From NCBI GenBank assembly GCA_947306185.1, contig CAMZFU010000001.1, forward strand, positions 23,952-87,951: a stretch of DNA of 64,000 nt. The letters are read 5' to 3'. Below, piece by piece: positions 13,147 through 45,903 of this stretch. Under the pieces are notes generated by a model. It was not told the origin of the DNA. It searched no databases and worked only from the letters and a program-made list of their open reading frames with translations. Both the position numbers and the translations under genes were made by a program. Source of the stretch: an uncultured Pseudomonadota bacterium (GTDB taxonomy: Bacteria; Pseudomonadota; Alphaproteobacteria; Rs-D84). How positions within the stretch are numbered: position 1 is the first letter of the stretch; the number at the start of each line of letters is the position of its first letter.

Positions 13147-13776
13147 CTACAATTTAATCAATCCAATTTGACAAGATTTCCATAATACTACATCTATATA
13201 TCCGCGTGGCAATTTTGTTGCGGTCACCAAATGCGCAAACATATCATCACACGCATTTTTTATATCCGGTGTTAATTCGTCTGTACGGCAGATTCCGGCA
13301 TATAGCGCCCCAAGGCGTCTTATCCATACATCATATTTTACCGTATCAACACCCAAATTCCGTGCCAAATGATTCGCAGTTATTTTTCCAATATGTGGCA
13401 ACTTTGCCAAATATCTCAACCTTTCTTCATCGGTACCACATACATAAAACCCATCGCATAATTCTTTACGATTTTCCCAAATCTTGCATATCGCCGATAT
13501 TTTATTTTTGTTATGAAACATTTGGAACAGACCGTCAAAATCTGCACCATTTTTATAAATATAATCCATAATATTTTTATGAATACGCTTCGCGGTTTTC
13601 TGCGAAAAACCGCCGGCCAAAATCACATACGCGCACATTTCGGCAAACGCATCAGGTGAAAATTTATGGGGATTTGCCAAATTATCACGAATTTCATCAA
13701 AAGATTGCGCGTCACTATCTGCGCCACACGCGCGAATTTGCTTTTCCAAATCAAAAAACCATTGCGCATCAAACAT
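13147..13776 (-). CDS. HhH-GPD superfamily DNA glycosylase without Fe-S cluster (MagIII/AlkA-like)
   Basis: LPHIGKITANHLARNLGVDTVKYDVWIRRLG parallels the EndoIII helix-hairpin-helix LPGVGRKTANVV...VDTH with conserved Lys and Asp. No C-terminal 4-Cys motif. Confidence 0.6.
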   Translation of the reverse strand: MFDAQWFFDLEKQIRACGADSDAQSFDEIRDNLANPHKFSPDAFAEMCAYVILAGGFSQKTAKRIHKNIMDYIYKNGADFDGLFQMFHNKNKISAICKIWENRKELCDGFYVCGTDEERLRYLAKLPHIGKITANHLARNLGVDTVKYDVWIRRLGALYAGICRTDELTPDIKNACDDMFAHLVTATKLPRGYIDVVLWKSCQIGLIKL

Positions 13777-16069
13777 TACCACCACCAACCCTGCCAGACA
13801 ACATTTTGCGTTTATATGCCTCTAATATCTTTGGATCGATCTTCTTATGTTGCGGTTCTTTGTCGGCAAACATTTCTTCTACTTTCCCTTTTCCTTGCAC
13901 ATAATTCGCTATATGCTGTTCTCTACTTAATTGCGGTTTTTCCATTCTGAAATCATAAGGTGCATCTTTACCAGATCTATCTAAACTACGTTGTTCTATT
14001 GAACTATTGCTATGTGCTTGTTCACGTACGGTCGTATTTAATCTGATATCATCAGCGCCCAATTCTGTTTTTGCACCTGTGTTTTCTTCTTTCTTTTCCA
14101 ATCCGGGTTTATATTGTGCATTTGGCACCGGTATCTTCTGATTCTGTCCTTGTTGTCTTTTCAGGTCTAATGTATCTAGATGATTAAGTACAACATCTCT
14201 TAATCTTGTAGAGCCATAGTTAAATTGTTCCTGGTCACCAGAAAGTTCTTTGACTCTATCAAAAACATCCCTATACTCTTTTTTCATATCTTCTGGCAAC
14301 AGCCACTGTTGCGAAAGGTCTTTCAAGGCGAACATCATCCGTTTGAATGATTCAGGGTCTCTATCTTTGTGGTGTGACAAAACCTCTTCCAATCCGTATA
14401 TCAAATCTTCGTAATCTTCTGGCTTTTTTTCACCTGCGTTAACCTTATCATTGGTCATATCTTCGCGTTGCATTAGATTTTCTGGACGTGGCGAAACATC
14501 TTTGTTTTCTTGTTTCTTGGATAAATCTGCGCCATGCGCCATATCATCTGGTCCAAGCATCTGCTGTGGCTGTTCCTCCTGTCCAAAGCCCTTATTTATT
14601 GCATCCATTACCGCCTCGTAATTAGGCAAGCCGTTTTCAAACGTATCTCGTGATATTTTATAATATTCATCTGCTATATCTTTCAATTTTGGATTTCTTA
14701 ATGCCTGATGAAAATCACTGAACAATTTATTGCTTTCTTGCAATCCTTCCAACCCAGGATTTTCTGACCATTTAGCCCTGGTTTCATGTAACCTTTCCCA
14801 TAAATGTCTTAAATTTTCTAATGCATTCTCTTCAGTTTGAGATTCGGTTTTTGCTTCTTTGACCACATTATTATGTACAATTGTTGGTGAAATATTTTCG
14901 TTTTCTTTTTGTCTATGTTTTTCTTGTTTAGGTTCATTACCCAACTCTTTATCTATCAACTCCAACAATTTTGTCTGATTATAATCAATATCTCCCATAT
15001 GCGCATCAGTGGTATAAAACTCCATTGTGAAATCTTCCAAACCGGGGTCTTTGAGCGCATTGTTATACGCGTCACGCACCTTATTAAGTTCAACAAAAGA
15101 AACCGGTTTTTTAGACGCCACTGCACGATACTCGTTTATAGCATCTTTCAACCTTAACATGGCCTCTTTTGTTTTTGGGTCCATTTTTTCTTGTTCGTCT
15201 TCGCGTTGCATTAAATTTTCTGGCCGTAGAGAGACATCCGCGTTTTTTTCTTTGTGTTCTAATCCGTCCCCATGTGCTTCATCTTTCCTGATTTGCTGTT
15301 CTTGAACTTTATCCGTGGCTTCACTTTCCTTTTGAGATTTTTTACCGTCTTTTACAAACGCTTTTTTAACATCATGTACAACAGCATTTGCGGTTTTATC
15401 CAATACATTTCCGGCTTTTTCCAAAACTCCTGTTCTTGCCGGACCGTCATTTTTTTCTTCTTTTTCTGCCACCTTATCCAATCTTTTTTGTATTATACTC
15501 TGAAATTCATCGTATGCGGATCTTTGTTGATCGTTATTAAACATAAAATCTTTCATATGATGCAACGGTTCTGACAACCGCAATGCCGTTGCTTTGGAGA
15601 TTTTATCTTCTTTTAATGCATCCTTGATTATATTTCCTATATTACTAAATTCAACAACAGCCGACAATGCACCGTTTTGTTCAGAATACGCATCGGCATA
15701 TTTTTCCATTGCATCTTTTATCTGTTCTAGAACTTCTTTGGAATCTTTCTCGCTATTTTGAGCGGCATCTTTGTCAAATTCTAACGAATTGGTCATTTGT
15801 TCATACGCATCGTCAAATTGTAATAAATGCTTATCTGCAACAGTATTTAATTCGTTTACTATACTATCGATAATAAGCCTATTGTTTTGAAATAAATCAT
15901 CATAATCTTGGAGCATCTGTTGAGATATAAGCTTATCTTCACCGGCTTCGCCCACCTCTCTTTTTATCTGCTCTAAAAGAGACATTCTCTCCTGCTGATT
16001 GGCATACCCCAGGTTAGACACCAATCTTTTAAAATACTCTAATCTTTCTAATGTTCTATTTTCATCCAT
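13769..16069 (-). CDS. Large acidic hypothetical protein with internal sequence repeats (candidate effector-like)
   Basis: 766 aa, no signal peptide. Duplicated segment AHGDGLEHKEKNADVSLRPENLMQREDEQEK… versus AHGADLSKKQENKDVSPRPENLMQREDMTNDK…. Highly charged. Confidence 0.5.
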   Translation of the reverse strand: MDENRTLERLEYFKRLVSNLGYANQQERMSLLEQIKREVGEAGEDKLISQQMLQDYDDLFQNNRLIIDSIVNELNTVADKHLLQFDDAYEQMTNSLEFDKDAAQNSEKDSKEVLEQIKDAMEKYADAYSEQNGALSAVVEFSNIGNIIKDALKEDKISKATALRLSEPLHHMKDFMFNNDQQRSAYDEFQSIIQKRLDKVAEKEEKNDGPARTGVLEKAGNVLDKTANAVVHDVKKAFVKDGKKSQKESEATDKVQEQQIRKDEAHGDGLEHKEKNADVSLRPENLMQREDEQEKMDPKTKEAMLRLKDAINEYRAVASKKPVSFVELNKVRDAYNNALKDPGLEDFTMEFYTTDAHMGDIDYNQTKLLELIDKELGNEPKQEKHRQKENENISPTIVHNNVVKEAKTESQTEENALENLRHLWERLHETRAKWSENPGLEGLQESNKLFSDFHQALRNPKLKDIADEYYKISRDTFENGLPNYEAVMDAINKGFGQEEQPQQMLGPDDMAHGADLSKKQENKDVSPRPENLMQREDMTNDKVNAGEKKPEDYEDLIYGLEEVLSHHKDRDPESFKRMMFALKDLSQQWLLPEDMKKEYRDVFDRVKELSGDQEQFNYGSTRLRDVVLNHLDTLDLKRQQGQNQKIPVPNAQYKPGLEKKEENTGAKTELGADDIRLNTTVREQAHSNSSIEQRSLDRSGKDAPYDFRMEKPQLSREQHIANYVQGKGKVEEMFADKEPQHKKIDPKILEAYKRKMLSGRVGGGNV

Positions 16070-18934: not shown

Positions 18935-19507
18935 ATGAAGTTTAAGTTATTGTATTTTGGGGAAATTTTAATTAACCCAAAAAAACGAGCCCAACATATA
19001 TCCGATATTCGTATGCAATTTCACCCACAACTTAAAAAATTAGTGGAACACCAACCGTGGGATAACCTTAAACAATATATGGCCCCAGATGCAACAAAAA
19101 GCCCGATTACCACCCGTCATATTGGTGGTATAGATTGGAATCCAATTATCACACCAAAGTTAAAACTTATTGCGGAATTAGATATCCAAATGTTACACCC
19201 TGAAATTGTTGGCGTACCACGTTCAGATATTGATAATCGTATCAAAACATTATTCGATGGTCTGCGTTGTCCACAAAATGAACATGAAATCGGTCAGAAT
19301 GTTCCACGTGACCAGGGACCAATTTATACCCTGCTTGATGACGACCATTTGATTACAAAAATATCGGTGAACACAAGCCACTTGCTAGCAACACACATGT
19401 TTCACCCAGACATTACCAGTATCAGCCCAGACTGCATGTTTTTAATGATTGATGTTAATGTCCGTGTTGCCGAAGGAACTTTGGAAAACCTGCCATTTAT
19501 GGTATAA
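18935..19507 (+). CDS. Hypothetical protein (190 aa)
   Basis: ORF followed by a strong terminator. No motifs recognised. Confidence 0.4.
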   Translation: MKFKLLYFGEILINPKKRAQHISDIRMQFHPQLKKLVEHQPWDNLKQYMAPDATKSPITTRHIGGIDWNPIITPKLKLIAELDIQMLHPEIVGVPRSDIDNRIKTLFDGLRCPQNEHEIGQNVPRDQGPIYTLLDDDHLITKISVNTSHLLATHMFHPDITSISPDCMFLMIDVNVRVAEGTLENLPFMV

Positions 19508-19526: not shown

Positions 19527-19556
19527 AAAACACCGGATAAAATATCCGGTGTTTTT
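19527..19556. terminator. Rho-independent terminator (bidirectional)
   Basis: aaaaaCACCGGATaaaATATCCGGTGtttttta. Confidence 0.8.
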
Positions 19557-20491
19557 TATATTGTCTGTACTACCCGCTCTTGGGGGACATAAACATTTTC
19601 ACCAGATGTGTGTCGCAATTGTTGCGCTTTTATTATTCCATCTAATACTGCATTTTGTTTTTTAAGATTTCTATTTTCCGTCCTAAGTTTCCGTATCAAT
19701 TCTAACGCTTCTTCTAACGTTCGTGGTTCATATTCTTCGTCCGTTATTTGTGATTCGTCGGTGGACAATTGTGCTTGCTGGGCCTGCTGTTTTTTTATCT
19801 CTAATCTTTCTTGGACTGGCGCAAAAGATTTTTGCATTATTTCAAATCTATTTGCTCGGGCAAACGGAGAATCATTAAAATCTGCTCCCCATTCGCTACC
19901 AATATTTTTGCTATACTTGTACCTCAACATTTTATAAATTTTTTCAATATCTTCATCTGGAATACCCAAATTTTCAGCATTATCAACCAACACTTTGAAA
20001 TCGCTTTCTACTTCTGGATTTGTAACTTCCAAAACATGTATAAGTAAGGATTTATTTATCGCGGGATTGTTCATCCGAAAACCACGCCCCACATGACCAT
20101 CTTTATAAAGGAAACCATGATACAGCTTGCACATGTGTAAATCAAAGCGCAACTTACTACCAACAATTTTATTTTTATCAATTCCATTTACTATATTAAT
20201 CAGGAATTTTTGCCCTTCTATATCATCTGTATTTTGAAACATCTTAACAATTTTTTGGGCATCTTCAATTATATCATGTTCACCACTCCTAAGGCAGTCC
20301 AACATCTTAATAAAATCTTCTTGGCTACTATAAATACGCGAATCAAACGTCTCTGTTGTGTCTACTAATGAGCCAAAGTTAGTCCTACTTCCATTAATAA
20401 ACATCCATGAAGATTCACCGATATTACTAAGCACAACCATCGCCAGTTCAAGTAACTGTGTCCCACTGCTATTAAATTTATATTTATCCAT
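19556..20491 (-). CDS. Hypothetical protein with prepilin-like N-terminal motif and C-terminal coiled coil
   Basis: 311 aa. N-terminus MDKYKFNSSG/TQLLELAMVVL has Gly then Glu at +5 as in class III signal peptides, but the hydrophobic segment is short. Last gene of the T4bP-like operon. Confidence 0.4.
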   Translation of the reverse strand: MDKYKFNSSGTQLLELAMVVLSNIGESSWMFINGSRTNFGSLVDTTETFDSRIYSSQEDFIKMLDCLRSGEHDIIEDAQKIVKMFQNTDDIEGQKFLINIVNGIDKNKIVGSKLRFDLHMCKLYHGFLYKDGHVGRGFRMNNPAINKSLLIHVLEVTNPEVESDFKVLVDNAENLGIPDEDIEKIYKMLRYKYSKNIGSEWGADFNDSPFARANRFEIMQKSFAPVQERLEIKKQQAQQAQLSTDESQITDEEYEPRTLEEALELIRKLRTENRNLKKQNAVLDGIIKAQQLRHTSGENVYVPQERVVQTI

Positions 20492-20554
20492 TTATTATTC
20501 CTTTCTATACGGAATATTTTAACAGAAAAATGTGTTATTTTCCAAAAAATTGTA

Positions 20555-21625
20555 CTATGACAAAAATGCCGTTATTTGGTCTTGCATTTGGAATGTCCCC
20601 AACACGACCCACGCAATCACCGCGGTTATCAATAAAATACCAATACTGTTCAACGCATTTGATACAGATTCTATTTTCTTTACTGAATTTTCCAGATAAT
20701 CAGTTGATATTTGATTAAGGTTGGAATCAAAATCATTCATATCAGCGTATATAGTCAAATCACCTATCAATTCTTGGTTAGGGAAATCCATACCTGTATT
20801 TTGCAATGCGTCACCCAAATTATCACCATTTGCAATATAACGTAATGTCGCATCTAATATTTTGCGCAGATATCTGTTCGAATTATCGGCAAGCATACGC
20901 ATTGCATCTGGTATTGCAACCCCAGACGAAACCATTGCCGCCAATGACATCATCCAACTAACAGATAAACGTATTTTATAAATACTCCACGGCGGGAATT
21001 TATCAAATGCCGCACGTATATGCCCCGCCCAGCGTGGTAAAGACCACCAAATCAAAATCCCAGAAGCAACAAATACTACCGCAATTATATGCCAATATTT
21101 ACTGGCCACGTCTGACACCCATATAAGAGTTGCCGCCCCCCCAGTCCACACCATTGAATCACCCGCAACCTCGGCCAACGGCGGAACAAGATATAATCCC
21201 ACCATAATAATTATACCAATTACCAAAACGAATAATAATAACGGATATGCAATCGCACCAAATACTGCACCACTAATACGTTTATTTGCAACTATGATAC
21301 GACTAACGTTTTCCAATGCCACAACCAAACTAGACATATTTCCGGATGTCAATAATAATGTTTCTTCGGCCGGAATCCAACCACGTGTTGCCTCGGAAAA
21401 ACTCAAACCGCGTTCAAGGTTCTTTTCCCATTCGCGCATACATATCGCAAAAGGTTCGTTTGGTTTTGCACCCCCCTTGGATTCTGTCATCTGGATACGG
21501 TTTAATGCATCAATCAACGTAAAATCGTTTTTCAACAATGAAACCAATTTGCGCCATATGGTTACGCGTTTATCACGGCTAAACCTGCAAACTAATTTTG
21601 CATAAAGTATCTCAAGTTTGTTCAT
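20555..21625 (-). CDS. Type IV pilus / T2SS inner-membrane platform protein (GspF/PilC/BfpE/PilR family)
   Basis: 356 aa. Two repeated T2SSF-like cytoplasmic domains (…LLLTSGNMSSLVVALENVS…, …LADNSNRYLRKILDATLRYIANGDNLGDAL…). Three TM helices. Confidence 0.7.
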   Translation of the reverse strand: MNKLEILYAKLVCRFSRDKRVTIWRKLVSLLKNDFTLIDALNRIQMTESKGGAKPNEPFAICMREWEKNLERGLSFSEATRGWIPAEETLLLTSGNMSSLVVALENVSRIIVANKRISGAVFGAIAYPLLLFVLVIGIIIMVGLYLVPPLAEVAGDSMVWTGGAATLIWVSDVASKYWHIIAVVFVASGILIWWSLPRWAGHIRAAFDKFPPWSIYKIRLSVSWMMSLAAMVSSGVAIPDAMRMLADNSNRYLRKILDATLRYIANGDNLGDALQNTGMDFPNQELIGDLTIYADMNDFDSNLNQISTDYLENSVKKIESVSNALNSIGILLITAVIAWVVLGTFQMQDQITAFLS

Positions 21626-21630
21626 TGTTT

Positions 21631-23268
21631 TTAATAAACCCCCGGTCTATCCAGCAAACCGACCCAACGTTCTAATTCATCAACACCGATTATCCCACGC
21701 AACATCAATTCACTTGCCGCCTCTTTCAATGTACGACCATCCATTTCTTCTAACCAATATTTCACCGCGGCATCTGTGTCACCGGAAAGTGCAAGTTTTA
21801 GAAATTCACTATTTGTAATAATAATTTCACCGGCCTTGATACGTCCATGGGTACCCGTTCCGCCACAATGTTCACATCCCGCCCCACGAATATACACCTG
21901 TTTCAATCCGATCTCTCCAAATGCATCCATAACACGATTATATTCAGAATGTTCGGGGTGATCCGCCAAATGTTCACGACAATGCGGGCACAACCGTTTA
22001 AACAAACGCATAGAAACAAGCCCTCGCATCATCGTTTCTTCTTTTAATTTGAATGCCTCAACCCCCATATCCAATAAACGCACCAATGCAGCCATCGCAG
22101 AATTTGCATGTAATGTTGTCCAAACATTATGCCCAGACAGCGCACCTTTGACCGTTAATTGTGCCGCGGCAAGTGTTCGTATTTCACCAACCATCAATGT
22201 ATCAGGGTCACTGCGTAATGCGGCGGCCAACGCCTCGGTATATTCAGATTCACGTTGTTCTTCGGTTGCGGTATTAACAACAGGAATCTGGTGCGCACCG
22301 AATATTTTTTGCTCAACCGGGTCTTCAACCGTAATAAGGTTTATTTCATAATGATGTTCCTTTAACATCAAAACCATATTACGAACAAGTGTTGTCGATT
22401 TACCAGAACTTGTCGGCCCCGCAACGACAACCAATCCTGTCGGATAAGAACGCAAACGATGCAATAAACGCTGTTCATATTTACCAAATTCTTGTTCGGT
22501 TGTTATATTTTCAGATGGGTTATCATACAACAATCGCATAACAACATATCGTGATCCAAATGCAATCGGATTGAATTGCATTCTGATACTAAGCACCCCC
22601 TGGGGCAGATATAAATCTTTGGTTCCACGCAAAGGTGTACGACCATCTTTCTGGGCCGATTGATATTCATTTTGCGCATAGTTTGCATTTGAAATATCAG
22701 CTGATGCAAATGCCGCACGAACAAAAGATTCACCCCAGCCAGAATTGAATTCCAATACTGGTTGCATACTGCCGTCTATGCGAAAATATATTGTTGTTTG
22801 GTCTGCAACCTCGATATGAATATCAGAAACTTTTTGTGCCGCCGCGCGCGCAACAATATCAACAAAATCTTTCTGCATTTGATTGTTATAATCAACGCGC
22901 GATTTTATCGCATCCCCAAGTTTGTTTTCGTGATATGCATATATTGCGGAAACCAACCCCAAATCAGAATAAAACGGTATACGCAATGGACGATTTTTTT
23001 TGGTTAACAAATCCATAAAGGCCAGCACACGACCATCATATCTGTGTGTACGAGAAATTACAATGCATCCACCAGAAAAGTATGCCAATAACCCTTGCGT
23101 TTCTTTTGGTAATTCAAATTCACCGCCTGGTGCGGTCAAAAGTTTATTACCTTCGGAAAAAAGATATTCTACGATTTCTTTATTATCGGCATGTTCTAAC
23201 CCAGCCGGAACAGACGGTTTCCGGGAAATCGGCAAGTTATCCAAAACGCCATTATTTTCGGTCTTCAT
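21631..23268 (-). CDS. Type IV pilus / T2SS assembly ATPase (GspE/PilB/BfpD/PilQ family)
   Basis: Walker A VVAGPTSSGKST. SDIHIE and RIDG motifs. Walker B DPDTLMVGEIRT. His box GHNVWTTLHANSA. C-terminal tetracysteine CPHC…CEHC zinc motif. Confidence 0.85.
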   Translation of the reverse strand: MKTENNGVLDNLPISRKPSVPAGLEHADNKEIVEYLFSEGNKLLTAPGGEFELPKETQGLLAYFSGGCIVISRTHRYDGRVLAFMDLLTKKNRPLRIPFYSDLGLVSAIYAYHENKLGDAIKSRVDYNNQMQKDFVDIVARAAAQKVSDIHIEVADQTTIYFRIDGSMQPVLEFNSGWGESFVRAAFASADISNANYAQNEYQSAQKDGRTPLRGTKDLYLPQGVLSIRMQFNPIAFGSRYVVMRLLYDNPSENITTEQEFGKYEQRLLHRLRSYPTGLVVVAGPTSSGKSTTLVRNMVLMLKEHHYEINLITVEDPVEQKIFGAHQIPVVNTATEEQRESEYTEALAAALRSDPDTLMVGEIRTLAAAQLTVKGALSGHNVWTTLHANSAMAALVRLLDMGVEAFKLKEETMMRGLVSMRLFKRLCPHCREHLADHPEHSEYNRVMDAFGEIGLKQVYIRGAGCEHCGGTGTHGRIKAGEIIITNSEFLKLALSGDTDAAVKYWLEEMDGRTLKEAASELMLRGIIGVDELERWVGLLDRPGVY

Positions 23269-23269
23269 T

Positions 23270-24010
23270 TTATTTTGCTAATTCCGTCTTGTTTTTACTG
23301 CCAACATTAAGTGTTTGTGTTTCGCCATCTTTGATAAACGTAACACCTTCGTCCAATGATATAGATTTCACCATAAATCCATCAACATCTTTACCAACGC
23401 TGATTTTTTTATTTTGTCCGTTTGCTAAATCTTGGATTGTCGCCTGTAACTGTTCGCCTGCACCATAAACATTTATAAGTTTATACCTTTTTGTAATTTC
23501 TGTTTCTGGTTGTTCTTCTTCGGCAATAAATGATTTCTTTGAGGCCGCAGATGCCGCCGCAGTCAATGCACCAACCGGCGACACTTGATTTGCATCCAAT
23601 GCTTCTTTTTCTTTTTCCAAACGTTTTGCTTCGGCCTCTAAACGAACACGTTCTGTTTCAAATTCCTGCTGTTGCTGTTCTGCACGGCCGGATAGCGTGT
23701 CTATTTCCATATGCAATTTTATTTTTTCGGCCGCCAACCTATCCAAATCAAGATTCAACTGTGCGCGTTCTTTTTCTAATTGCATTAAAACCTTTTCTTG
23801 TTCCAAATCTGTGATTTGTTGGAACAAGGAACCTTCAATCTGATAATCTTCAATTGCACCCGCAGAAATTTCATCGTTCAATTCATCAACGTTATTAACA
23901 GATTCTATAACATCTATGACATTATCAAATTCCGTTGGCTCATCCGCGTGCGCCACAGATGCGATTCCAACCACAAAGATACACAATAATATTTTTATTT
24001 TACTTTGCAT
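23270..24010 (-). CDS. Periplasmic coiled-coil protein, PilP/BfpU-like position in the operon
   Basis: Signal peptide MQSKIKILLCIFVVGIASVAHA. Long Q/E coiled coil. Small C-terminal beta domain. Confidence 0.35.
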   Translation of the reverse strand: MQSKIKILLCIFVVGIASVAHADEPTEFDNVIDVIESVNNVDELNDEISAGAIEDYQIEGSLFQQITDLEQEKVLMQLEKERAQLNLDLDRLAAEKIKLHMEIDTLSGRAEQQQQEFETERVRLEAEAKRLEKEKEALDANQVSPVGALTAAASAASKKSFIAEEEQPETEITKRYKLINVYGAGEQLQATIQDLANGQNKKISVGKDVDGFMVKSISLDEGVTFIKDGETQTLNVGSKNKTELAK

Positions 24011-25304
24011 AGATTATCACCTCATAGTTCCAGATTTTCTTTATCATATTCCATGACACTTTTGTCATGTACACCCCGCCGAAACCGTCAAAGATTTGCA
24101 TAAACTCATACGGTATCATTTTTGATTCTGCGGAAACTTCAACAACATATATCTCTGCGGATTGCGTACTGTTTGCAATAACATCCGATGTAATATTCAT
24201 ATTCACATCAAGTTTTATTGCCTGAAATCTGCTTGTTAATTCGCGCACTATTGTATCCGCATCGCGTTCATCACGTGATGGCGACGGCACACGTTCCGGT
24301 AACTTTGCACGCACAGATATTTCATTATCACTTAATTCTTGTACAAAAACCCCAGGCATAATTTCCGCGGCCACCGCATAAAAATCATCCAATGTTCCAA
24401 AAGAACGTCTGAAAACCGCACTAACATATTTTTCTTCACATTCTGCCGAAACCTGAACCCAACCCGTAACCGGTTGCATCAAAAAACCAATCGCCTTGTA
24501 ACACAAATCTGCGCGTTCAATTGCATCTGGTAATAAATCAAACGGCATCACAAGTGGTTCTATGACCGGTTCTTGGTGCAAGTTATATTCTTTATCCAAC
24601 TCTTTATTCTTGGCCTCAATTTGTCGTTTATATTCCGCGGCAAGTTCTGGGTTTATCTTGGCAACTTGTGGTGTTGCGGTAAACATCTGATTTATTGGTT
24701 CACGGAATAGATACAAGAACAATAACGCAAATAAAAACAACATTAAAAATGACACTGCACCCGCCCCCATACGACTTATTGGATGCAAAGTACCATGTGT
24801 ATTTACCGACAATAATTCACGCAAATCACGATCAATCGCACGTGGCATTCCCCATTCTGACGGCGCAATCAAAGCATTCCAATCTGGGATATCGGTTAAT
24901 TCCGCATACTTTTCACGCGCATCAGTTTCATTATCGAACAACAAATCGTGCAGTATCACGCCATTTCTAACTGCAATTAAAATATATTTACCATCAATAT
25001 GAAATGCGCATAACATAGATGCGTATCCAGGCAAAGATTCTATAATTTCGGCTGCAAGTGACGGCATACCAGAACGCTGACCCAAACTACGTGCCCCAAG
25101 GCCAATCATATCACCATATGCAATATAACGATTTAATCTACGGTCAATACCACGGGCCAATTTTGCCGCATATGCACGTGGTGTGAAGCCCGCAACCATC
25201 GGTTGCCACAACAACCCAGCGGCATATTTTTTCCGTCTAATGTGTACATATTGGCCTGACAATTTCTCTCTCCCGATACATATCGTGATAGAATTATAAC
25301 ACAA
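24000..25304 (-). CDS. Bitopic inner-membrane protein (cytoplasmic N-domain, one TM, periplasmic domain), BfpC/PilO(R64)-like position
   Basis: 434 aa. Single TM GAGAVSFLMLFLFALLFLYLF at mid-length. Immediately upstream of and overlapping the ATPase operon. Confidence 0.35.
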   Translation of the reverse strand: MCYNSITICIGREKLSGQYVHIRRKKYAAGLLWQPMVAGFTPRAYAAKLARGIDRRLNRYIAYGDMIGLGARSLGQRSGMPSLAAEIIESLPGYASMLCAFHIDGKYILIAVRNGVILHDLLFDNETDAREKYAELTDIPDWNALIAPSEWGMPRAIDRDLRELLSVNTHGTLHPISRMGAGAVSFLMLFLFALLFLYLFREPINQMFTATPQVAKINPELAAEYKRQIEAKNKELDKEYNLHQEPVIEPLVMPFDLLPDAIERADLCYKAIGFLMQPVTGWVQVSAECEEKYVSAVFRRSFGTLDDFYAVAAEIMPGVFVQELSDNEISVRAKLPERVPSPSRDERDADTIVRELTSRFQAIKLDVNMNITSDVIANSTQSAEIYVVEVSAESKMIPYEFMQIFDGFGGVYMTKVSWNMIKKIWNYEVIIYAK

Positions 25305-25373
25305 ACCGACAAATCAATTCCAGTATAAAAAAACCGTTATATAAATAACGGCCTTATTTTTATGTCTTTTATC

Positions 25374-25811
25374 TTATCTGGTTACACATCCACCTGGTGG
25401 AACACCGTAAAAACCCGCACTCTCACATTTTGTGATTTCGTGTTCTGGCATTGGTTGATCAGACCGCGCAGTTTTAACATTCAACACATTCGGACAATCG
25501 TAAACATTTGCCGCCAATATAAAACTACGTTCTGGACCAAACACAACCCATTCGTTTGGTTTTGTCCGTTCACTAACAATCCAATACGCATTACCTGGAC
25601 GCGCCTGATCAGCAATACGATTTTCAAGATATCTGCGCGCATCATCTTGGTCATACACAGAAACAGATGATTCCAGTTTATACAAGAAAACGCACCCAAT
25701 TGGTTCGCCATCCAGTTGTTTAAGATGTTCACTGCCGTTTTCATTTTTTATATATCCACCACAACCAACCATCACAAACGCGGCAAACAACAAAGCCAAA
25801 TATTTTTTCAT
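25374..25811 (-). CDS. Small lipoprotein (145 aa)
   Basis: Lipobox LLFAAFVMVGC-GG. Sits 25 nt downstream of lpxC. Confidence 0.5.
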   Translation of the reverse strand: MKKYLALLFAAFVMVGCGGYIKNENGSEHLKQLDGEPIGCVFLYKLESSVSVYDQDDARRYLENRIADQARPGNAYWIVSERTKPNEWVVFGPERSFILAANVYDCPNVLNVKTARSDQPMPEHEITKCESAGFYGVPPGGCVTR

Positions 25812-28544: not shown

Positions 28545-31500
28545 TTGTTAAAATATAGACCGAAACTATGGGGGAATGTTATGATAAATGCGTCTAATCC
28601 AATATTGGAACAAAGCGATTTCGAGGCATTGCGCCTTTATGACCCCGATAGTACATTGCATAAAGAAATTGGTGAAAAAGTCCGCCAAATTTTTATAAAA
28701 CTGTTCCAAAATACCGATATAAATATTGACGATTTCTATTTTACCGGTTACGACAGCGATGAAGCCAATGCATTTTTTATCGAAGGTTCTAACACCAAAA
28801 ACGGCAAAAATGTTATCGCTGTGTCTTATGGTTTGATTATGGCATTATCAAACACCGAAGAATTAGCGGCAATTATCGGACACGAATGCGGACATTACCT
28901 GTGGTCACAATTATTGGGCGGCCGAAACACAATATTCCAAGAACGCGCCGCGGACCTGCGTTCGGTTGATTTAATGATAAACGGCGGATATAACCCACGC
29001 AATGTTTTGTCGGCCGAAAACAAGGTTTTTGGTCAATCTGGTAAAAAAATAGATTATCAAAGTGTGACCTTGGATGTTCATGGCAACAGTTTTAATCGTA
29101 TTGAAGATGTTAAAACATACCTAACCAAATTATCATTGGAACGCGGATATTTCCCCGAAGTTAACCCATCCGACCCCGAATACGATGCATTTAAACAAAA
29201 AATACAAGAAACCAGAAAAAACGAACCATATCTTTCTTTTCTTGATAAGGCAATACAGGAGTGGGCAAGTAATTCATTTAAATTCGCACCCAACGAACGT
29301 GCACAGACATTAGATGCGATAGATTATTATTTAGATGAAATAGTAAAAAACGAAACGCGACTTAATGACCTTGTAAAAGTTTATAAAACATTTGATTATG
29401 CAAATAAACCGGCTTCCGAAGATCACTTTAACCATGAAACAACCCTACTGGAAAGAATTGTTGATAAACTTATTGAAAAATCTGAAACAAATCCAACTAT
29501 TGAAAAATACATTTGGCAAATATTAAGTCTTTCTCAACTTAAATTTTATGGGAAGTTTAACACATTATATTATGCTATTGGGGACCTAATATCTTCATTT
29601 GAACATAATGTTGAAGAAGCCGCCCAAAAAATTATTGAAAATGCGGTATATATTCCACTGGCAACCGCATTAACAGATTTTACAGAACACACTATTGAAT
29701 TTGTCCCAGACAAATATACTATCGGTAAAAAACCATATTGGGTTCGCCTAAGGGAAAAGAATAATCCAGAAATAAATCAGGCACTTAGTTTGGTATCACA
29801 AAGACCAACCCGTATGTTGGTATATAATGAAAAAGATTATATGTATGATAAAGACGGAAACATAATCGCGTACGGCGAAAAATGTGCCAAACTTATTCAA
29901 GAAGAAAAAGAAAGAAAAAATATCGCCCAAGCAAATGAAATCTTTGATAAATTGGCAAATGCACACATAGAACAACTGGCACAATATGAAAAAATAAAAG
30001 ATTTCGTGGACGGAAAAATTGATCCAAAAAATATGGATTACGATTTTGTAATGAAAACATTTCAAGAATGGATTGTCGCCCCAAGCTTGGAAATGTTAAA
30101 CAACAGAAATGGTGAAGAATCCCAGTTAAAACAATATGTAAATAAACTTGATAAAACCAAAATACTAAGTCATTACAATGCGCTTATTTCTTCGTCATAT
30201 TATCGCGATTATAAAAAATACACAGACGAACTTGGAAATTCGCTTGAAATAAGCGCCCCGCAACAATTCCCCGAAGACACAGAAAATTCAGAAATATTAA
30301 AATGGATTTCATGTTTGTATGGTAGTCGGCTACAACAATATATAACCGAATGCACGGTATGTGACGCATATATAAAAATGGGTGAATACTATCATAAAAC
30401 AAATGCGTTGGCTTTAGAAGAAGAATTATACACAAACCTACTTAATAAGTCAGTCCGAAGTCAAGAAGAAACAAAACAATACATATCTGAAAAAGTACCA
30501 CTATACATATCAAAAAATCCGTTTGCCGGACCGCGTATGTATAGCGAAATAGTAAATGCAATTTTATCAGATATTGATAAAAACAAAACCGATATAATTG
30601 AAAATATTATCAAATGCCTTGGGTTTAAACGGTTGCCCAAAACCGAAGAAGAATTATTGTTCTTTATCAAACAAATGCAATTGTACAATTTCCATTATGT
30701 TAATGGTAATGTCGAAAGTGAACTTTGTGCATTTAATCCGTTCTTTCATTATGATACTGTTTATCCACAATTGAATATAACCGAAATTGGTACGGCATTA
30801 TTGGTCAACTATATGGCATCTGGGTACAAGTGTGATCCTATCAAAGTCATCAAATCGTTTGGATATGATACACCTTCTATATTCCTGCATAATTACAGAA
30901 ATATTTTAACAAAACTTATACCATACGAAATGTTTGACTCTTTTACATTGGAAGACAAAATATATTTATATGAATTTATGAATGAAAACACCGGGTTTTC
31001 CGAAGAAGCCGCAAATAAAAACTATTTTATAAAACAAATTGTTAATCAGATTATAACATACCCAGATTATAATACCGCCGTAGAATATGCGGAAAAGATA
31101 TTGATGCGTAAAAACATCTTTTATGCCACAGAAAAAAGAGACATCCATGATATAGAATTCGCGGTTGAACGTGAAAAATTAATAGATTTTTATTCTGATT
31201 ATTGGGCGCAAAAACTCGGGCGCGATGATGATTCACCAGAATTTGCACAAAAGGCACAAGAACTTGCGGGTTTCTTGGATTATGTTCCAGAACCCAAACG
31301 TCGATTCAATATTGGACGACTTAGTAGAGCCCGCGGGCCACGTAATTTTACCAAAAGTATGGCGGGGGCATTGGCGGATAAAATCGCAAATAAAATATAT
31401 GCCCAAGAAAACGTTACCAGAATTCTTGATTCTGTAAATGACAGAACTATTAAGGGTGGCGATGCGGAAAGGTTTGATTCCTTTGGTCGCGATGCCGATG

Positions 31501-33332
31501 CATTATTTAATTTACTTGCGGGTTCCCCAGAAAAAGCATTGGCAACCATAGAATTTATAAATGGTGAATTAACCGATGAATCCATACGAAAACTATTTTC
31601 TATTTTTACTAAGCGCGACCGTGACCAATTGAACAAACAATCTTTAACCATACTTCATGAAAATTTCTGGGCGGCCGATTTACCAATTCGTGCATACCTG
31701 ATGAATCGCCTGCTTAATGCATATAGTACCGAAGACGGTAAAAAACTACAACTTATCTTGGATATGTTCTTTAAGCCGGATTCAGAATATTACAATGATG
31801 CCAAGTTAATATTAAAATGCATTTATAAAAATCTGGACGAAATTGAACGCGGATTAATTTTGGCGGCATTGATTGCATCTGGTAAAAAATCTGGCGAAAA
31901 TGAAATGACATCTGGAACCGCGGTTGGCCGTGGATTAAAAATATTCTTGCAAAACAAAGGACCCGCATTTATTAAATTTGGACAATTGTTATCTTACCTG
32001 CCAAACCTTGACCCGGATATTCGTCATGAATTATCAACCCTGCGTGACAAGGCAAAAATACCAACACGCGCAGAATTGTTTGATATGTTAAGAACATCTT
32101 TACCAGAATCTGAATTCAATAAAATATCGTATGTTGGCGGAATACTGGGGGCCGGGTCATTCTTTGTAACCGTTCATGTTAAATACGATGACAAAGATTG
32201 CGTTATATCGCTTATGCGACCAAACACACAAAAACTGACATCGGACGGAATAAATATGATTGCAAAAACTATTCAGGATATGACCGCACAGGATCCAAAA
32301 TATGCCGTACTAACAAATATTGTAAATCAGGCGCGCGATTCCGCATACAGTGAAATTGATATTGAACAAGATCATAAAAAATATGTCGATGCGGTTAAAA
32401 TATATGAATCATTTACCGTTCATACACCTATGGGCGACTATTCGCCGGATGTTGCACGGTGGATGGCATACGGCGCCGCACCAGATAAAAACAACGCATA
32501 TAAAATTATGGAAATGTCACCGGGTGTACCACTTACTTCTGATGAATTGACCGAAGAAGAAAAACACGATATGGCGTTGGCATACACAACATTGGAATTG
32601 GCGATATTACTGTCCGGTAATAAATGGGATACCGACCGTCACGCGGGCCAACAAAACTTTTCAAATCCGGCATTTCGTGAATTCTGCATCGGAATTTTTG
32701 ATACCGGTGCCCAAATGAACAATGCACCAAATCGTCACGACAAACGGATAATGGGTTACCTGCTCTATCTGTTGATAAACGGCGTACGTAATGGTAAATC
32801 GATATCAGAAGTATTAACAACCAGTGTCCAATATATTGACCGTGTTTGTGAAAAATATGGTATCAGTACCGCGTATATTGATGGTGTACAACGCGGTATT
32901 ACCGCACTTTCCGATATTATTCAATATCAAAAAGAAGTCCGCGATGATAATGGAAACATTGTGCAAGAGGCTAAATCACTTACCGCCGAAGATTTGGAAA
33001 ATATCGCCGTGGCATTAATTGAATCAGGGGTAATTGACAGAACACTTATCAACACAACCAAAACACATTTTGTGTTAGATGTGTTATCATTCTGGAAACC
33101 AAAAGAAAATGCGCAACCGTTATCATTACCAAAACGCAAAAGTCCGATAAGTATCACCGTCGGTCCCGAAATTACAGTACAAATACAAACGCATCGTATA
33201 AACAAGGCCCAAGAAGAAATAGATAAAATGATTGCCGAACAACGCGCCAATGAACACCTTGGCGTCAAAGTCGGTTTAACAGAAAAGACACAACAAATAC
33301 CGACTACGCCACAAGAATTACGACGCGCATAA
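28545..33332 (+). CDS. Giant multidomain protein: N-terminal M48-like zinc metalloprotease domain plus C-terminal ABC1/UbiB-type atypical kinase-like domain
   Basis: 1595 aa. LAAIIGHECGHYL (HExxH) followed ~30 aa later by QERAADLRS (the M48 third-ligand E-x-x-A-D). Later FIKFGQLLSYLPNLDPDIRHELSTLRD…ISYVGGILGAGSFFVTVHV…DTDRHAGQQNF…IFDTGAQ matches the UbiB/ADCK motif order. Confidence 0.6.
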   Translation: MLKYRPKLWGNVMINASNPILEQSDFEALRLYDPDSTLHKEIGEKVRQIFIKLFQNTDINIDDFYFTGYDSDEANAFFIEGSNTKNGKNVIAVSYGLIMALSNTEELAAIIGHECGHYLWSQLLGGRNTIFQERAADLRSVDLMINGGYNPRNVLSAENKVFGQSGKKIDYQSVTLDVHGNSFNRIEDVKTYLTKLSLERGYFPEVNPSDPEYDAFKQKIQETRKNEPYLSFLDKAIQEWASNSFKFAPNERAQTLDAIDYYLDEIVKNETRLNDLVKVYKTFDYANKPASEDHFNHETTLLERIVDKLIEKSETNPTIEKYIWQILSLSQLKFYGKFNTLYYAIGDLISSFEHNVEEAAQKIIENAVYIPLATALTDFTEHTIEFVPDKYTIGKKPYWVRLREKNNPEINQALSLVSQRPTRMLVYNEKDYMYDKDGNIIAYGEKCAKLIQEEKERKNIAQANEIFDKLANAHIEQLAQYEKIKDFVDGKIDPKNMDYDFVMKTFQEWIVAPSLEMLNNRNGEESQLKQYVNKLDKTKILSHYNALISSSYYRDYKKYTDELGNSLEISAPQQFPEDTENSEILKWISCLYGSRLQQYITECTVCDAYIKMGEYYHKTNALALEEELYTNLLNKSVRSQEETKQYISEKVPLYISKNPFAGPRMYSEIVNAILSDIDKNKTDIIENIIKCLGFKRLPKTEEELLFFIKQMQLYNFHYVNGNVESELCAFNPFFHYDTVYPQLNITEIGTALLVNYMASGYKCDPIKVIKSFGYDTPSIFLHNYRNILTKLIPYEMFDSFTLEDKIYLYEFMNENTGFSEEAANKNYFIKQIVNQIITYPDYNTAVEYAEKILMRKNIFYATEKRDIHDIEFAVEREKLIDFYSDYWAQKLGRDDDSPEFAQKAQELAGFLDYVPEPKRRFNIGRLSRARGPRNFTKSMAGALADKIANKIYAQENVTRILDSVNDRTIKGGDAERFDSFGRDADALFNLLAGSPEKALATIEFINGELTDESIRKLFSIFTKRDRDQLNKQSLTILHENFWAADLPIRAYLMNRLLNAYSTEDGKKLQLILDMFFKPDSEYYNDAKLILKCIYKNLDEIERGLILAALIASGKKSGENEMTSGTAVGRGLKIFLQNKGPAFIKFGQLLSYLPNLDPDIRHELSTLRDKAKIPTRAELFDMLRTSLPESEFNKISYVGGILGAGSFFVTVHVKYDDKDCVISLMRPNTQKLTSDGINMIAKTIQDMTAQDPKYAVLTNIVNQARDSAYSEIDIEQDHKKYVDAVKIYESFTVHTPMGDYSPDVARWMAYGAAPDKNNAYKIMEMSPGVPLTSDELTEEEKHDMALAYTTLELAILLSGNKWDTDRHAGQQNFSNPAFREFCIGIFDTGAQMNNAPNRHDKRIMGYLLYLLINGVRNGKSISEVLTTSVQYIDRVCEKYGISTAYIDGVQRGITALSDIIQYQKEVRDDNGNIVQEAKSLTAEDLENIAVALIESGVIDRTLINTTKTHFVLDVLSFWKPKENAQPLSLPKRKSPISITVGPEITVQIQTHRINKAQEEIDKMIAEQRANEHLGVKVGLTEKTQQIPTTPQELRRA

Positions 33333-33337
33333 TAAAA

Positions 33338-34183: not shown

Positions 34184-34196
34184 TAAATTGATTACG

Positions 34197-36452: not shown

Positions 36453-36587
36453 ATACCCCAGCCCCATAAAAATAACACAAAAAACATAAAATGTCAATAA
36501 AATTGTTATACTTAACGTTTTTGATATTATACTTATAACAAATCATAAAAGAAATAATATTATAAAGAGACTGGATTTAATTAGTAC

Positions 36588-36613: not shown

Positions 36614-36628
36614 CTTAATTAAACTATT

Positions 36629-39687: not shown

Positions 39688-39764
<77 letters not shown>

Positions 39765-43183: not shown

Positions 43184-45604
43184 CTATAAATCGCCTGCGC
43201 CTTGCTTTTTCAGATATTCTGCAACAAATGCCGAACCAAATTGTCTGTATAAATCTTCTGCCAAAAGCACAGATGAACGACCGGATTCAAATAATCGTAA
43301 TAAATTACCTAAACCACCAAGTTCTGTATTTAATATCACAGATTCATTATTCACTGGTCGCGCAAGTAATACCGCACGTTTTAAATTCGGATATGCTTTG
43401 CCTTGGATAAATGCCATTTCCAATGGATTCAGATTCCAATGTTCATAGTCCGCCGCATCCGCCGCCGGATTACGGAAGAACATAATTGTCTGTGCCTGAC
43501 CACGGACAACGTCCCCTATTCCTAATTTATCAAGTACGTTTGCGCGTTGGAAAGCGACCATATATGCCTGGCGATTTTTACGACCTTCTTGTAGTCCTGT
43601 TATAAAGTTATCACGGAACATCTTGTTTTCCAACATTGGCGCGGTTTCGTCAATCATAATCAATGACGGATTTCCACCAGACACAGTTGTATTATTTATA
43701 CGGTGTAATATATACGAAATAACCGCTGGTGCAAGTGTCGAATCTTGTAAAATATCGGTAAAGTCAAATGTTGTTAAACGTGATTGCAAATCAAGTGTAT
43801 CTGTTTCTTCATTAAAGATTTCACCATATTGCAATGGATCAACCCATTTTTTAAGTGCGCTGCGCATATTACCAGATGAAGAAAAACAACTTTCCCACAA
43901 ATTCTTTAACATACGGTCTTTATCAGATAGATAATCAAAATTTACGGATACTGCACGTGCAATTTCATCTGCAGATGTCGCATCTGTTTGTTCAGAAATC
44001 ATCGCAAACCAACGACGCAAAAATGCACGATTTGCGACAGTATCTTGCATTTTTAATGGATTTAAATGTGTCAAAAATGCTGTATCAGATTTTTCTTTAC
44101 CCTGCATAGTTATATACTTTCCACCAACCGCAAGTGTAAATATTTCTGCACCTTTGTTTCTATCAAAGAAAAATGCTTTTAATTTTTTATGCCGTAAAGA
44201 TTGCGCAATTAAAAACGAGAATAATGTTGTTTTACCACCACCGGTTGGACCAATTGTAAGTGTATGACCAACCGCCGCCGGTTTATCAGAAACATGGAAT
44301 TGGAATTGATACGGTGTTCCTTGGGCGGTTGGGAATATAACCAATGGCCCCTGACCCCAATCTGAATTTGCAATACCGCGTGGTGTGCTGGACATTGGAA
44401 TACTTATTGCCGCGGCACGTGACAACATTTTAAATGTACGCGGGAAAGTATCAAATCCCGGAATCATTGAAAACCATGATACCTTGGTCGCGAAATTTTC
44501 TTGTATTGGCGCCACACCAAACGATGCGCATATTTTCTTGAAATCATCTATATATTCTTTCAATTCTTGTTCAGATTTTCCGAATATCACAAAAAGTGGA
44601 TAATAATTAACCAACGTCTGATTACCGGAAACATTTTCATCCATAACAGATTCTGCATCAGATATTTGTTCTTCGGTTGAATCGTTTTCTTTTGATGCAA
44701 CATTACGACGTTGACGCAGGACCGCTTCGACATCGGCGGCACCCATAATCTTGAATCCATTCATACAAATTACTTCTGTTTGGATTGTATTTATAGAATC
44801 AAAGAAATCTTCGTCTAAATAATCCGGCGCGGCACGAAATGATATAAGACCCGCATAATATTCCCTATCGCCACTTATATATTTAACATTACCATTTGGT
44901 AAAAATTCAACATCATCAACGGTCGAAAGTTCTTTTATTTTTTCATCACATACTTGTGGTTCTGGTTTTGTAATTGGTGAAAATATACGGCCAAAAAATT
45001 TTGCCATATTATCACGAGAATCATTTTTAAGAACTTTTGGATTATATGGTGCAAGAATAGATTCTATATAATTTCCATATTGATTAAGTAAATCACGCGA
45101 TGCCGCACCACTATTTACAGATAAAACAATATAATAATTATTAATAAATATGCGCAAACCCTGGGAATGCCATTTATCATATATTTTCTGTAATACCGGT
45201 TGATCAAATTCATAATCAGTATTTTCTGCGACCGCGTCACGAATTGTAAAAAACCGCAATATTACATTTGGATCGTGAATCTGATTAAAAATTTGTGCCC
45301 TTAAATCAAGAAATTTTGCACGTTGTTCATCTGTTTGCATACTTGTCTGGACCCCAGAAACACGATAAACACGAATCAATGAACCGTTATCTATTTCCAA
45401 AGAATCATCAGTATAAACTGTATCAAATGGCACATATTCTGAATAATGTTTATAACCAAATTTTGGAAATACATGCTTAACGATTGTTGGAATATACACC
45501 ATTAAAATGATAAAAACACAAATAACCGCCACCACCATAACAGTAAGTGTCATAGTTGTTGAAAAACCACCACCGGCAAAATATCTAAAAAAACTTTCTA
45601 TCAT
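43184..45604 (-). CDS. virB4: Type IV secretion system ATPase VirB4/TrbE family
   Basis: 806 aa. Walker A TIGPTGGGKTTLFSF. Walker B SLIMIDETAP. N-terminal TM segment. Size and motif spacing typical of VirB4. Confidence 0.8.
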   Translation of the reverse strand: MIESFFRYFAGGGFSTTMTLTVMVVAVICVFIILMVYIPTIVKHVFPKFGYKHYSEYVPFDTVYTDDSLEIDNGSLIRVYRVSGVQTSMQTDEQRAKFLDLRAQIFNQIHDPNVILRFFTIRDAVAENTDYEFDQPVLQKIYDKWHSQGLRIFINNYYIVLSVNSGAASRDLLNQYGNYIESILAPYNPKVLKNDSRDNMAKFFGRIFSPITKPEPQVCDEKIKELSTVDDVEFLPNGNVKYISGDREYYAGLISFRAAPDYLDEDFFDSINTIQTEVICMNGFKIMGAADVEAVLRQRRNVASKENDSTEEQISDAESVMDENVSGNQTLVNYYPLFVIFGKSEQELKEYIDDFKKICASFGVAPIQENFATKVSWFSMIPGFDTFPRTFKMLSRAAAISIPMSSTPRGIANSDWGQGPLVIFPTAQGTPYQFQFHVSDKPAAVGHTLTIGPTGGGKTTLFSFLIAQSLRHKKLKAFFFDRNKGAEIFTLAVGGKYITMQGKEKSDTAFLTHLNPLKMQDTVANRAFLRRWFAMISEQTDATSADEIARAVSVNFDYLSDKDRMLKNLWESCFSSSGNMRSALKKWVDPLQYGEIFNEETDTLDLQSRLTTFDFTDILQDSTLAPAVISYILHRINNTTVSGGNPSLIMIDETAPMLENKMFRDNFITGLQEGRKNRQAYMVAFQRANVLDKLGIGDVVRGQAQTIMFFRNPAADAADYEHWNLNPLEMAFIQGKAYPNLKRAVLLARPVNNESVILNTELGGLGNLLRLFESGRSSVLLAEDLYRQFGSAFVAEYLKKQGAGDL

Positions 45605-45903
45605 GCCGATAATCTCCGTGGTATTTTACTTCTTATCATTTTTATTTTTGCAATCAAAACTTGCCCTATTTGTGAATCATTTTTTGCAAATTTTGCAAAC
45701 ACCATATGAACCAGACACACAGATATCAAAAAATACAGTGGATTAAGGAACTTGTTTACAAAATCAGGAAAAACCATTAAACCAACAACATACAAGACAA
45801 TAAACACAACGAACTGAACCATAAAATTCAGTATCGCCAAAGTATACGGCACACCAAACAAAAGCGATGGATTCGCCAAAGCTTTTAGTACTTGTTGTCT
45901 CAT
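45601..45903 (-). CDS. virB3: Type IV secretion system protein VirB3/TrbD family
   Basis: 100 aa. MRQQVLKALANPSLLFGVPYTLAILNFMV matches the VirB3 LxKGLTRPxxxFGVP motif. Two TM helices. ATGA overlap with virB4. Confidence 0.7.
   Translation of the reverse strand: MRQQVLKALANPSLLFGVPYTLAILNFMVQFVVFIVLYVVGLMVFPDFVNKFLNPLYFLISVCLVHMVFAKFAKNDSQIGQVLIAKIKMIRSKIPRRLSA

Follow-up and report, generated by a model that had tools for sequence, protein, structure and literature searches.

Between gyrB and the lpxC and lpxK genes of an uncultured gut alphaproteobacterium of the order Rs-D84, assigned here to Candidatus Enterousia, lie four genes that resemble the inner-membrane part of a type IV pilus and have neither a secretin nor a pilin gene at their side. 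Do these genes belong to a working pilus, or are they an acquired module put to another use, as an earlier interpretation made before any database search (the sequence-only reading) had suggested? The locus was analysed within a stretch of 64,000 nucleotides (nt), here called the window (GenBank assembly GCA_947306185.1, contig CAMZFU010000001.1, positions 23,952 to 87,951 of the forward strand). Comparisons of sequence, profile and fold support the assignment of window positions 25262..20555 to the inner-membrane assembly core of a type IVb pilus, of the class formed by the bundle-forming pilus (BFP), the toxin-coregulated pilus (TCP) and the R64/PAPI-1 pili. The combined reading, namely that the locus is such a core, that the other genes of the system are dispersed, that the mechanism is the standard one and that adhesion is the most likely role, is in our judgement a probable one.

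The minus strand of the interval 19556–25811 carries, in this order, a lipoprotein gene of 145 amino acids (aa), an open reading frame (ORF) of 434 aa, genes for proteins of 246, 545 and 356 aa, and a gene of 311 aa. Situated upstream are lpxK, lpxC and a DUF374 gene; downstream come an oppositely oriented gene of 190 aa and gyrB. The sequence-only reading had listed the four central genes and the 311-aa gene, all of which are present, and had left the lipoprotein gene (25811..25374) undescribed.

An indication of a type IVb system comes from the ATPase. Its best match in the PDB is BfpD (8dze, E 2e-77), which aligns over residues 41–529 and thus over nearly the full length, compared with ~1e-44 for PilF, 1.8e-43 for GspE, ~3e-37 for PilB and much weaker matches to PilT and DotB. 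The protein displays a Walker A motif (GPTSSGKST), an Asp box, a Walker B motif, a His box and a CxxC...CxxC zinc motif. All 83 orthologues (83/83) keep Walker A, the His box and the four cysteines of the zinc motif without change, and two of the 83 have one conservative substitution in Walker B, in agreement with the PilB/GspE-class ATPase with tetracysteine motif that had been postulated. The platform protein has the GspF/PilC-type architecture foreseen for it; a phmmer search started from BfpE reaches E 5e-60 on its orthologues, and its N-domain shows a weak match to TcpE. The PilO2/BfpC-like protein combines a cytoplasmic BfpC-like domain with a transmembrane helix at residues ~164–185 and two periplasmic α-β-β ferredoxin-like domains, and its profile weakly matches the N-terminus of 4bz0/4byz. 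In the PilP-family protein, a Sec signal peptide is followed by a coiled coil that is highly conserved, and a variable linker leads to the PilP β-domain at the C-terminus, in confirmation of the periplasmic coiled-coil protein described earlier. TIGR03021 matches 23 of 23 orthologues tested (best E 2.5e-11); an hhalign comparison with one Bordetella PilP sequence is weak, at a probability of 21%. The window therefore holds a PilO2/BfpC-type protein, a PilP directly after pilO, a BfpD/PilQ-type ATPase and a platform, all of them features of type IVb systems, and the order bfpC-U-D-E or pilO-P-Q-R, recognized already by the sequence-only reading, is the order of plasmid type IVb operons.

Membership in a classical type II secretion system (T2SS) had been denied from the outset, and this stands: the equivalog scores are far under their cut-offs (226 bits versus 630 for GspE, 57 versus 424 for GspF), as is that of PilB, and family searches of the window returned no pseudopilin or GspC gene. 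A Tad/Flp origin of the ATPase finds no support in hidden Markov models either: Tad-type models stay far under their cut-offs, and the TadA-family model reaches only E 1e-10, compared with 1e-67 for GspE-class models.

The four genes appear to form a transcription unit of their own. A terminator scan lists a terminator-like hairpin on the minus strand (25355..25330) between the lipoprotein gene and pilO; it is followed by TGTTATAAT at 25301..25293, which, read by eye rather than called by a promoter tool, could be an extended -10 element. Hairpin and TGTTATAAT together make the pilus genes look like a separate four-gene operon. Mechanically, the pilO frame extends to TTG 25304 (434 aa, 25304..24000). 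However, nearly all PilO homologues have 420 aa, and the Shine-Dalgarno sequence GGGAGAG precedes TTG 25262, so that the real gene is taken to be 25262..24000; the bitopic protein proposed earlier keeps its topology and loses 14 residues. The four genes share one strand, as had been stated, and the overlap ascribed to all of them is found only where the start of pilP overlaps the stop of pilO by 11 nt, the other junctions being gaps of 1 and 5 nt.

Table 1. Features of the pilus locus and its immediate surroundings (window positions).
Feature	Position	Strand	Remarks
pilO2/bfpC-like gene	24000..25262	-	420 aa from TTG 25262; Pfam PAP_PilO 41.9 bits, cut-off 26.7
pilP-family gene	23270..24010	-	246 aa; TIGR03021 pilP_fam 32.6 bits, slightly below cut-off 34.65
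BfpD-like type IVb assembly ATPase gene	21631..23268	-	545 aa; T2SSE E 9e-65
GspF/PilC/BfpE-type polytopic platform gene	20555..21625	-	356 aa; two T2SSF domains, E 2e-25
Operon boundary	25293..25355	-	terminator-like hairpin 25355..25330 after lipoprotein gene, then TGTTATAAT at 25301..25293
Lineage-specific lipoprotein gene	25374..25811	-	145 aa; lipobox VGC, two conserved cysteines
Variable 311-aa gene in slot after platform gene	19556..20491	-	homologues in 7/84 loci; no family match

Whether the module was inserted between gyrB and lpxC can be judged from its relatives. PilO has 648 database relatives, and those with a named source are called 'type 4b pilus protein PilO2 [Alphaproteobacteria bacterium]'. 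When one genome per GTDB species was scanned, PilO relatives turned up in 214 reference species genomes; the best 80 of these 214 belong to Candidatus Enterousia or to uncultured gut or rumen Alphaproteobacteria or 'Rickettsiales'. With the window proteins, the four-gene unit was mapped onto 84 loci of relatives from the order Rs-D84 (L001–L084) and is present in every one of them. About 70 of the 84 share the layout DUF374-lpxK-lpxC-lipoprotein-PilO-PilP-ATPase-platform-(slot)-p190-gyrB-p213-UDG, down to a PilO identity of 48%. In five loci (L036, L045, L053, L061 and L075) the unit lies in another context, where the lipoprotein gene is absent, and in three the gyrB block is inverted. The ORFs of the operon are intact in 80–84 of the 84 loci. 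Pairwise ratios of nonsynonymous to synonymous substitution (dN/dS) are 0.03–0.13 for all four genes and 0.03–0.07 for the ATPase, and identities across the order amount to 77–95% for the ATPase and 61–91% for the platform, compared with 84–97% for gyrB. Signs of a genomic island are missing at the borders, where neither an integrase nor a tRNA gene was seen, and the GC content of the genes in 19556–25811 (0.39–0.42) is similar to that of neighbouring genes. The four-gene unit is thus ancestral to the order Rs-D84 and under strongly purifying selection, and it is no recent insertion. The view of an acquired module wedged between gyrB and lpxC has to be given up; the sequence-only reading had itself named a conserved ancestral block in relatives as the finding that would speak against it. 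Outside the lineage, the nearest relatives among the annotated plasmids collected are the PilO2-PilP-ATPase-platform operons of Bosea, Methylorubrum, Methylovorus and Bordetella together with bfp (identity ~33–35% for the ATPase, 35% for the platform, ~24–30% for PilO), and given these outgroups an ancient origin of the unit from a mobile type IVb operon is plausible.

As stated earlier, secretin, prepilin peptidase and an obvious major pilin are absent from the window, where family searches and motif scans found none. A secretin was traced first in the relative L042, in which a search with the Bosea and Bordetella operon proteins revealed a secretin C-terminus at the contig start, ~9 kb upstream of pilO; the database relatives of this protein carry the Pfam Secretin domain, and several bear the JGI name R64 PilN family. 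A metagenome scan started from the secretin alignment yielded 191 relatives on contigs of up to 935 kb, the top 80 of which show identities of 79–97%. Within these contigs a TcpQ-family gene is directly followed by the gene of a lipoprotein secretin, beside sufB, and the longer loci share a common layout, sufC-sufB-p178, then tcpQ-pilN and, further on, rpsT-plsY-dprA; the contig L088, which appears chimeric upstream of the secretin, was left out of this comparison. The best family of the secretin is TIGR02520 (PilN, type IVB; E 2.5e-70, under the equivalog cut-off), and TcpQ exceeds the cut-off of its Pfam family. When 1.8 billion representatives were searched exhaustively, the Enterousia secretins fell into essentially one 50% cluster, with the next relatives at no more than 45% identity. 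Of the 86 secretin loci, 68 have one uninterrupted ORF with a lipobox and a length of at least 520 aa; contig ends truncate most of the remainder, and only three copies (L089, L090 and L091) are disrupted. With a word-indexed protein search no more than 65 relatives came to light, none of them on a contig longer than 11.5 kb, as opposed to the 191 of the pattern-based metagenome scan. These 65 matches, together with three broken copies, had suggested a secretin confined to a single sub-clade or in decay, an idea that was rejected in view of the 191 relatives and the 68 intact copies.

The position of the window within the order follows from L103, which carries the secretin and, a few kb on, lpxK-lpxC-lipoprotein-PilO-PilP-ATPase. 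Its PilO is 42–43% identical to those of L042 and of the window, compared with 53% between L042 and the window, and the secretins of L103 and L042 are 82% identical. Since L103, the outgroup by PilO, and L042 both possess a secretin, the window clade is bracketed and, by parsimony, the ancestor had the secretin module. Downstream of the secretin there are often variable surface-protein genes (L088:3405-6814, L134:11537-12900, L091:7698-10160), encoding proteins of 120–188 aa with a conserved C-terminus (…PPxGQVYIWFN), Gly-rich proteins of ~330 aa and a Cys-rich protein of 514 aa; the stretch in L091 includes an autotransporter.

Five prepilin genes of ~158 aa were found in relatives by phmmer with BfpA and a plasmid major pilin as queries. 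The proteins start with M..ESG/RSMIEMLGVLAIMGVIT (the slash marking the cleavage site), which places Gly at -1 and Glu at +5 after a leader of ~7–12 residues. Towards BfpA the phmmer E-value is 2e-6, and the best PDB match is TcpA (8uhf, E 7e-4). Four of the five genes stand alone between uvrC and a pseudouridine-synthase gene, and the fifth (L170) immediately follows the secretin gene. In the window, motif scans revealed no credible prepilin; the strict G-x4-E pattern used there misses the pilins of Enterousia, which have Arg at +1 and were recovered solely by phmmer with BfpA. As relatives that bracket the window clade encode tcpQ-pilN and a prepilin elsewhere, the absence of these genes from the window most likely reflects dispersal and not loss. 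The genes of the system are spread over at least three chromosomal loci in the order: the operon described here, tcpQ-pilN by the suf genes, and a TcpA/BfpA-like prepilin by uvrC. The genome from which the window stems would accordingly be expected to contain a secretin module and a prepilin as well, and a prepilin peptidase presumably exists in the lineage.

Several observations weigh against this picture of a dispersed but otherwise ordinary type IVb pilus. In the window, ORFs of at least 120 aa gave no secretin, A24 peptidase or pilin family match. Further queries were run with phmmer against the window and 2.66 Mb of highly redundant Enterousia DNA, which represents a few genomic regions only. 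With BfpP and a plasmid A24 peptidase no match was obtained in either, and the Enterousia DNA revealed no minor pilin (queries BfpH and BfpI-L), PilV-type adhesin or lytic transglycosylase; nor did it reveal a retraction ATPase, as BfpF/PilT-like queries matched the assembly ATPase only. Type IVb major pilins typically have a long leader and a large D-region; the leader of the pilin found here is short and its similarity to type IVb pilins weak. Pfam gives no match for it, and NCBIfam only N-terminal pilin or pseudopilin matches. The secretin is broken in three contigs, by a frameshift in L089 and L090 and by a TAG stop in L091. The frameshift is the same in both cases (near ...PRAQVA/NGDTV; L089:8213-9840 and L090:5738-7365, from two runs), and the TAG lies in frame where other secretins read ...THMEGG... 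(L091:5536-7164); these interruptions could be assembly errors, phase variation or real decay. Finally, the completeness of the system in the window's own genome is deduced by phylogenetic bracketing, and the biological role of the pilus is assigned indirectly.

By analogy with known families, the platform and the cytoplasmic domain of the PilO2/BfpC-like protein would serve as docking sites for a hexameric BfpD-like ATPase. Hydrolysis of ATP would then make the platform raise processed pilin from the inner membrane and add it to the growing fibre, and the periplasmic domains of PilO2, together with the PilP-family protein, would couple this motor to the PilN-type lipoprotein secretin in the outer membrane. 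The fibre would most likely serve adhesion to a partner or host cell, a function that would be essential for an organism predicted to live off other cells. Saccharibacteria use type IV pili in a comparable way. Enterousia belongs to the order Rs-D84 and has a genome of less than 1 Mb; members of the order have neither respiration nor standard transporters, do not synthesise amino acids, nucleotides or lipids, and are proposed to live off a partner (PMC12306168). The same genomic survey reports type IV pili for another lineage only (PMC12306168), and a literature search found no description of pili in Rs-D84. It is tempting to go further and to regard the dispersed pilus as an organelle of the whole Rs-D84/Enterousia order for attaching to, and perhaps feeding from, another cell, derived from a mobile-element type IVb operon that was captured by the ancestor of the order, domesticated and scattered. 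This wider scenario is offered tentatively.

The best of the competing explanations is a type II-like secretion device, in which a short fibre exports soluble proteins rather than acting mainly as an adhesin. Type IVb systems are able to do so, as shown by the export of TcpF by TCP and by the secretion of CofJ, and the genome is rich in large effector-like orphans, for example at window positions 13769..16069 and 28545..33332; the failure to find a minor pilin or adhesin gene in the 2.66 Mb of Enterousia DNA would also suit such a device. However, genes for candidate substrates are linked to none of the three loci, and the architecture fits an adhesive pilus equally well. The two roles can coexist, and secretion as the main function seems unlikely.

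The operon might instead encode a repurposed, stripped-down machine of four inner-membrane proteins that works without secretin and pilin, such as a periplasmic piston or another non-pilus membrane motor, as the sequence-only reading had considered possible. Such a motor would explain why most loci have no partner genes within 10 kb and why the four genes moved together in the five rearranged loci, and it would agree with the interrupted secretins of L089, L090 and L091. It is opposed by the intact tcpQ-pilN of 68 of the 86 loci, by the pilin genes of the same lineage and by the secretin carried in the genomes that bracket the window clade. Moreover, we know of no pilin-independent function for this combination of ATPase and platform. 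The proposal is very improbable and, given the secretin and pilin of the relatives, the least likely of the rivals.

A DNA-uptake pilus, through which an organism incapable of nucleotide synthesis would obtain nucleotides or DNA, is similarly improbable. The lack of nucleotide biosynthesis in Rs-D84 (PMC12306168) speaks for it, as does the fact that many relatives have dprA at a distance of a few kb from the secretin locus. Such adjacency is weak evidence, however, and neither comEC nor comEA was seen. To our knowledge, competence pili are moreover of type IVa or Com-type and not of type IVb. An accessory thin pilus of the R64/PAPI-1 style, stabilising mating pairs for a VirB/VirD4 type IV secretion system, is hardly to be expected. 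In its favour are the plasmid-borne PilO2-PilP-ATPase operons among the closest outside relatives, the virB3 and virB4 genes in the window (43184..45903) and the VirD4 gene close to the unit in L036. Against it, the genes are scattered between housekeeping genes, have been inherited vertically throughout the order and evolve under strong purifying selection, and no PilV, shufflon, relaxase or other mobile-element hallmark lies in their vicinity.

Between lpxC and the lipoprotein gene there are 25 nt, and the terminator-like hairpin stands between the latter and pilO. The lipoprotein gene adjoins the operon in ~76 of the 84 loci. Among its 555 homologues, the few with a named source are proteins of Alphaproteobacteria or of Rickettsiales metagenome-assembled genomes (MAGs). 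They share a conserved domain of ~90 residues with two cysteines, followed by a variable tail, and are under purifying selection. Searches of Pfam and NCBIfam and a profile search of the PDB gave chance-level matches only and hence no credible family or solved relative, and the AlphaFold2 model (pLDDT 45) is unusable. Whether the lipoprotein belongs to the pilus system is uncertain.

On the other side of the operon, the 311-aa gene had been credited with a weak prepilin-like N-terminus. Its homologues, present solely in the closest relatives, vary in this region (…SGTQLLELAMVV…, …TGLKLYDLLTFALA…, …PKPILYDLLTFALG…), and G-x4-E changes to G-x4-D or is lost. The gene was rejected as a pilin on account of its occurrence in only seven of 84 loci, the unconserved motif and the fact that the slot is often empty. 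The interval between platform gene and p190 ranges from ~30 nt to more than 5 kb, with unrelated genes in different species, and is shorter than 100 nt in many relatives. Across L001–L084, the slot contains members of the 311-aa family, proteins of 738–844 aa or other orphans, or is nearly empty (~30–100 nt); in L054 it holds genes of 321, 261 and 178 aa that, as judged from their sequences, look like a restriction-modification set. As variable cargo of this hot spot, the 311-aa gene is no part of the pilus system. The adjacent 190-aa protein (18935-19507, plus strand), between the pilus operon and gyrB, is 79–97% identical in almost every locus, one short match being 100% identical, and comes close to gyrB in conservation. 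Pfam and NCBIfam give no match for it; its stretch RSDIDNRIKTLFDGL may recall the RusA resolvase motif.

Elsewhere in the window, an island of ~11 kb (28545-39764) lies between the DUF374 gene and tRNA-Met (39688..39764). It comprises genes for a 1595-aa protein, a MYG1-like protein, orphans of 766 and 266 aa, an epimerase and DUF4406/ASCH proteins. The 1595-aa protein has an N-terminal M48 peptidase motif only, and its gene is common only to the closest relatives L006, L007 and L009; in L001 the DUF374 gene directly follows the 537-aa and LrgAB genes, so that the whole stretch is absent there. Next to gyrB, 13769-16069 on the minus strand encodes a 766-aa, highly charged repeat or coiled-coil orphan with a weak TcdB_N match (E 1e-3); it is poorly conserved (29–39% identity, few loci) and looks like an effector. 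At 43184-45903, virB4 (806 aa) and a 100-aa virB3-like gene are followed by the gene of a 203-aa signal-peptide protein. The virB4/virB3-like pair also occurs in L001 and, together with the VirD4 coupling protein near the pilus unit in L036, indicates that the lineage has a type IV secretion system as well.

Rs-D84/Enterousia is a widespread uncultured gut and rumen lineage that is predicted to depend on other cells, and no proposal has been made as to how it contacts them. A type IVb pilus that strong selection maintains in genomes of less than 1 Mb, apparently unreported in the literature searched, is a concrete candidate for the contact organelle, and its genes provide a marker set for testing partner contact. 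The locus also illustrates how a system that is normally plasmid-borne and contained in a single operon can become a scattered chromosomal one. For annotation it follows that a secretin or pilin missing beside such a core need not mean an incomplete machine.

Compared with known systems, T2SS and the type IVa pilus belong to the same mechanistic class, with a GspE/PilB-type zinc-binding ATPase and a GspF/PilC platform, and the PilO2 of the window corresponds to a GspL-like fusion of PilM-like cytoplasmic and PilN/O-like periplasmic domains. However, BfpD and PilO2 are clearly better matches, and neither GspC, GspG-K nor a PilMNOPQ set is present. TCP of Vibrio cholerae resembles the system in that Enterousia relatives pair a TcpQ-family protein with the secretin, that the best solved relative of the pilin is TcpA and that the N-domain of the platform weakly resembles TcpE; the similarity is very distant, and the two systems are unlike in operon structure and in their regulators. 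BFP of enteropathogenic E. coli is encoded by one 14-gene plasmid operon (bfpA-G-B-C-U-D-E-F-P-H-I-J-K-L), whereas the Enterousia genes are chromosomal and occupy at least three loci. The ATPases are ~33% identical, bfpC and bfpU overlap by 23 nt, and BfpU has no detectable similarity to the PilP-family protein of the window. Counterparts of BfpF, BfpP, BfpH and BfpI-L were not found in the 2.66 Mb of Enterousia DNA searched.

The R64/PAPI-1 class, represented by Bosea pBSY19_1 and Bordetella pseudohinzii plasmids, shares PilO2 (PAP_PilO), PilP (TIGR03021) and the 11-nt pilO/pilP overlap with the window, and the ATPase of pBSY19_1 is 35% identical to that of the window. Plasmid type IVb operons read TcpQ-family gene, PilN secretin, PilO2, PilP, ATPase and platform, followed by pilins and a second ATPase; in the R64/PAPI-1-class reference operons the TcpQ-family gene and the PilN-type secretin directly precede pilO2. 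In Enterousia, by contrast, the system does not lie on a mobile element and tcpQ-pilN is split from pilO-R. A PilV adhesin, a shufflon and a PilT-like second ATPase are not among the parts found. PilP contains a coiled coil of ~100 residues, and the pilin has a short leader with G/RSMIE instead of the long PilS-type leader. In conclusion, the system itself is a known one of the BFP/TCP/R64 class, automatically named 'PilO2' in public MAG annotations; what is unusual in Enterousia is its chromosomal dispersal over at least three loci, the coiled-coil-extended PilP and the short-leader pilin.

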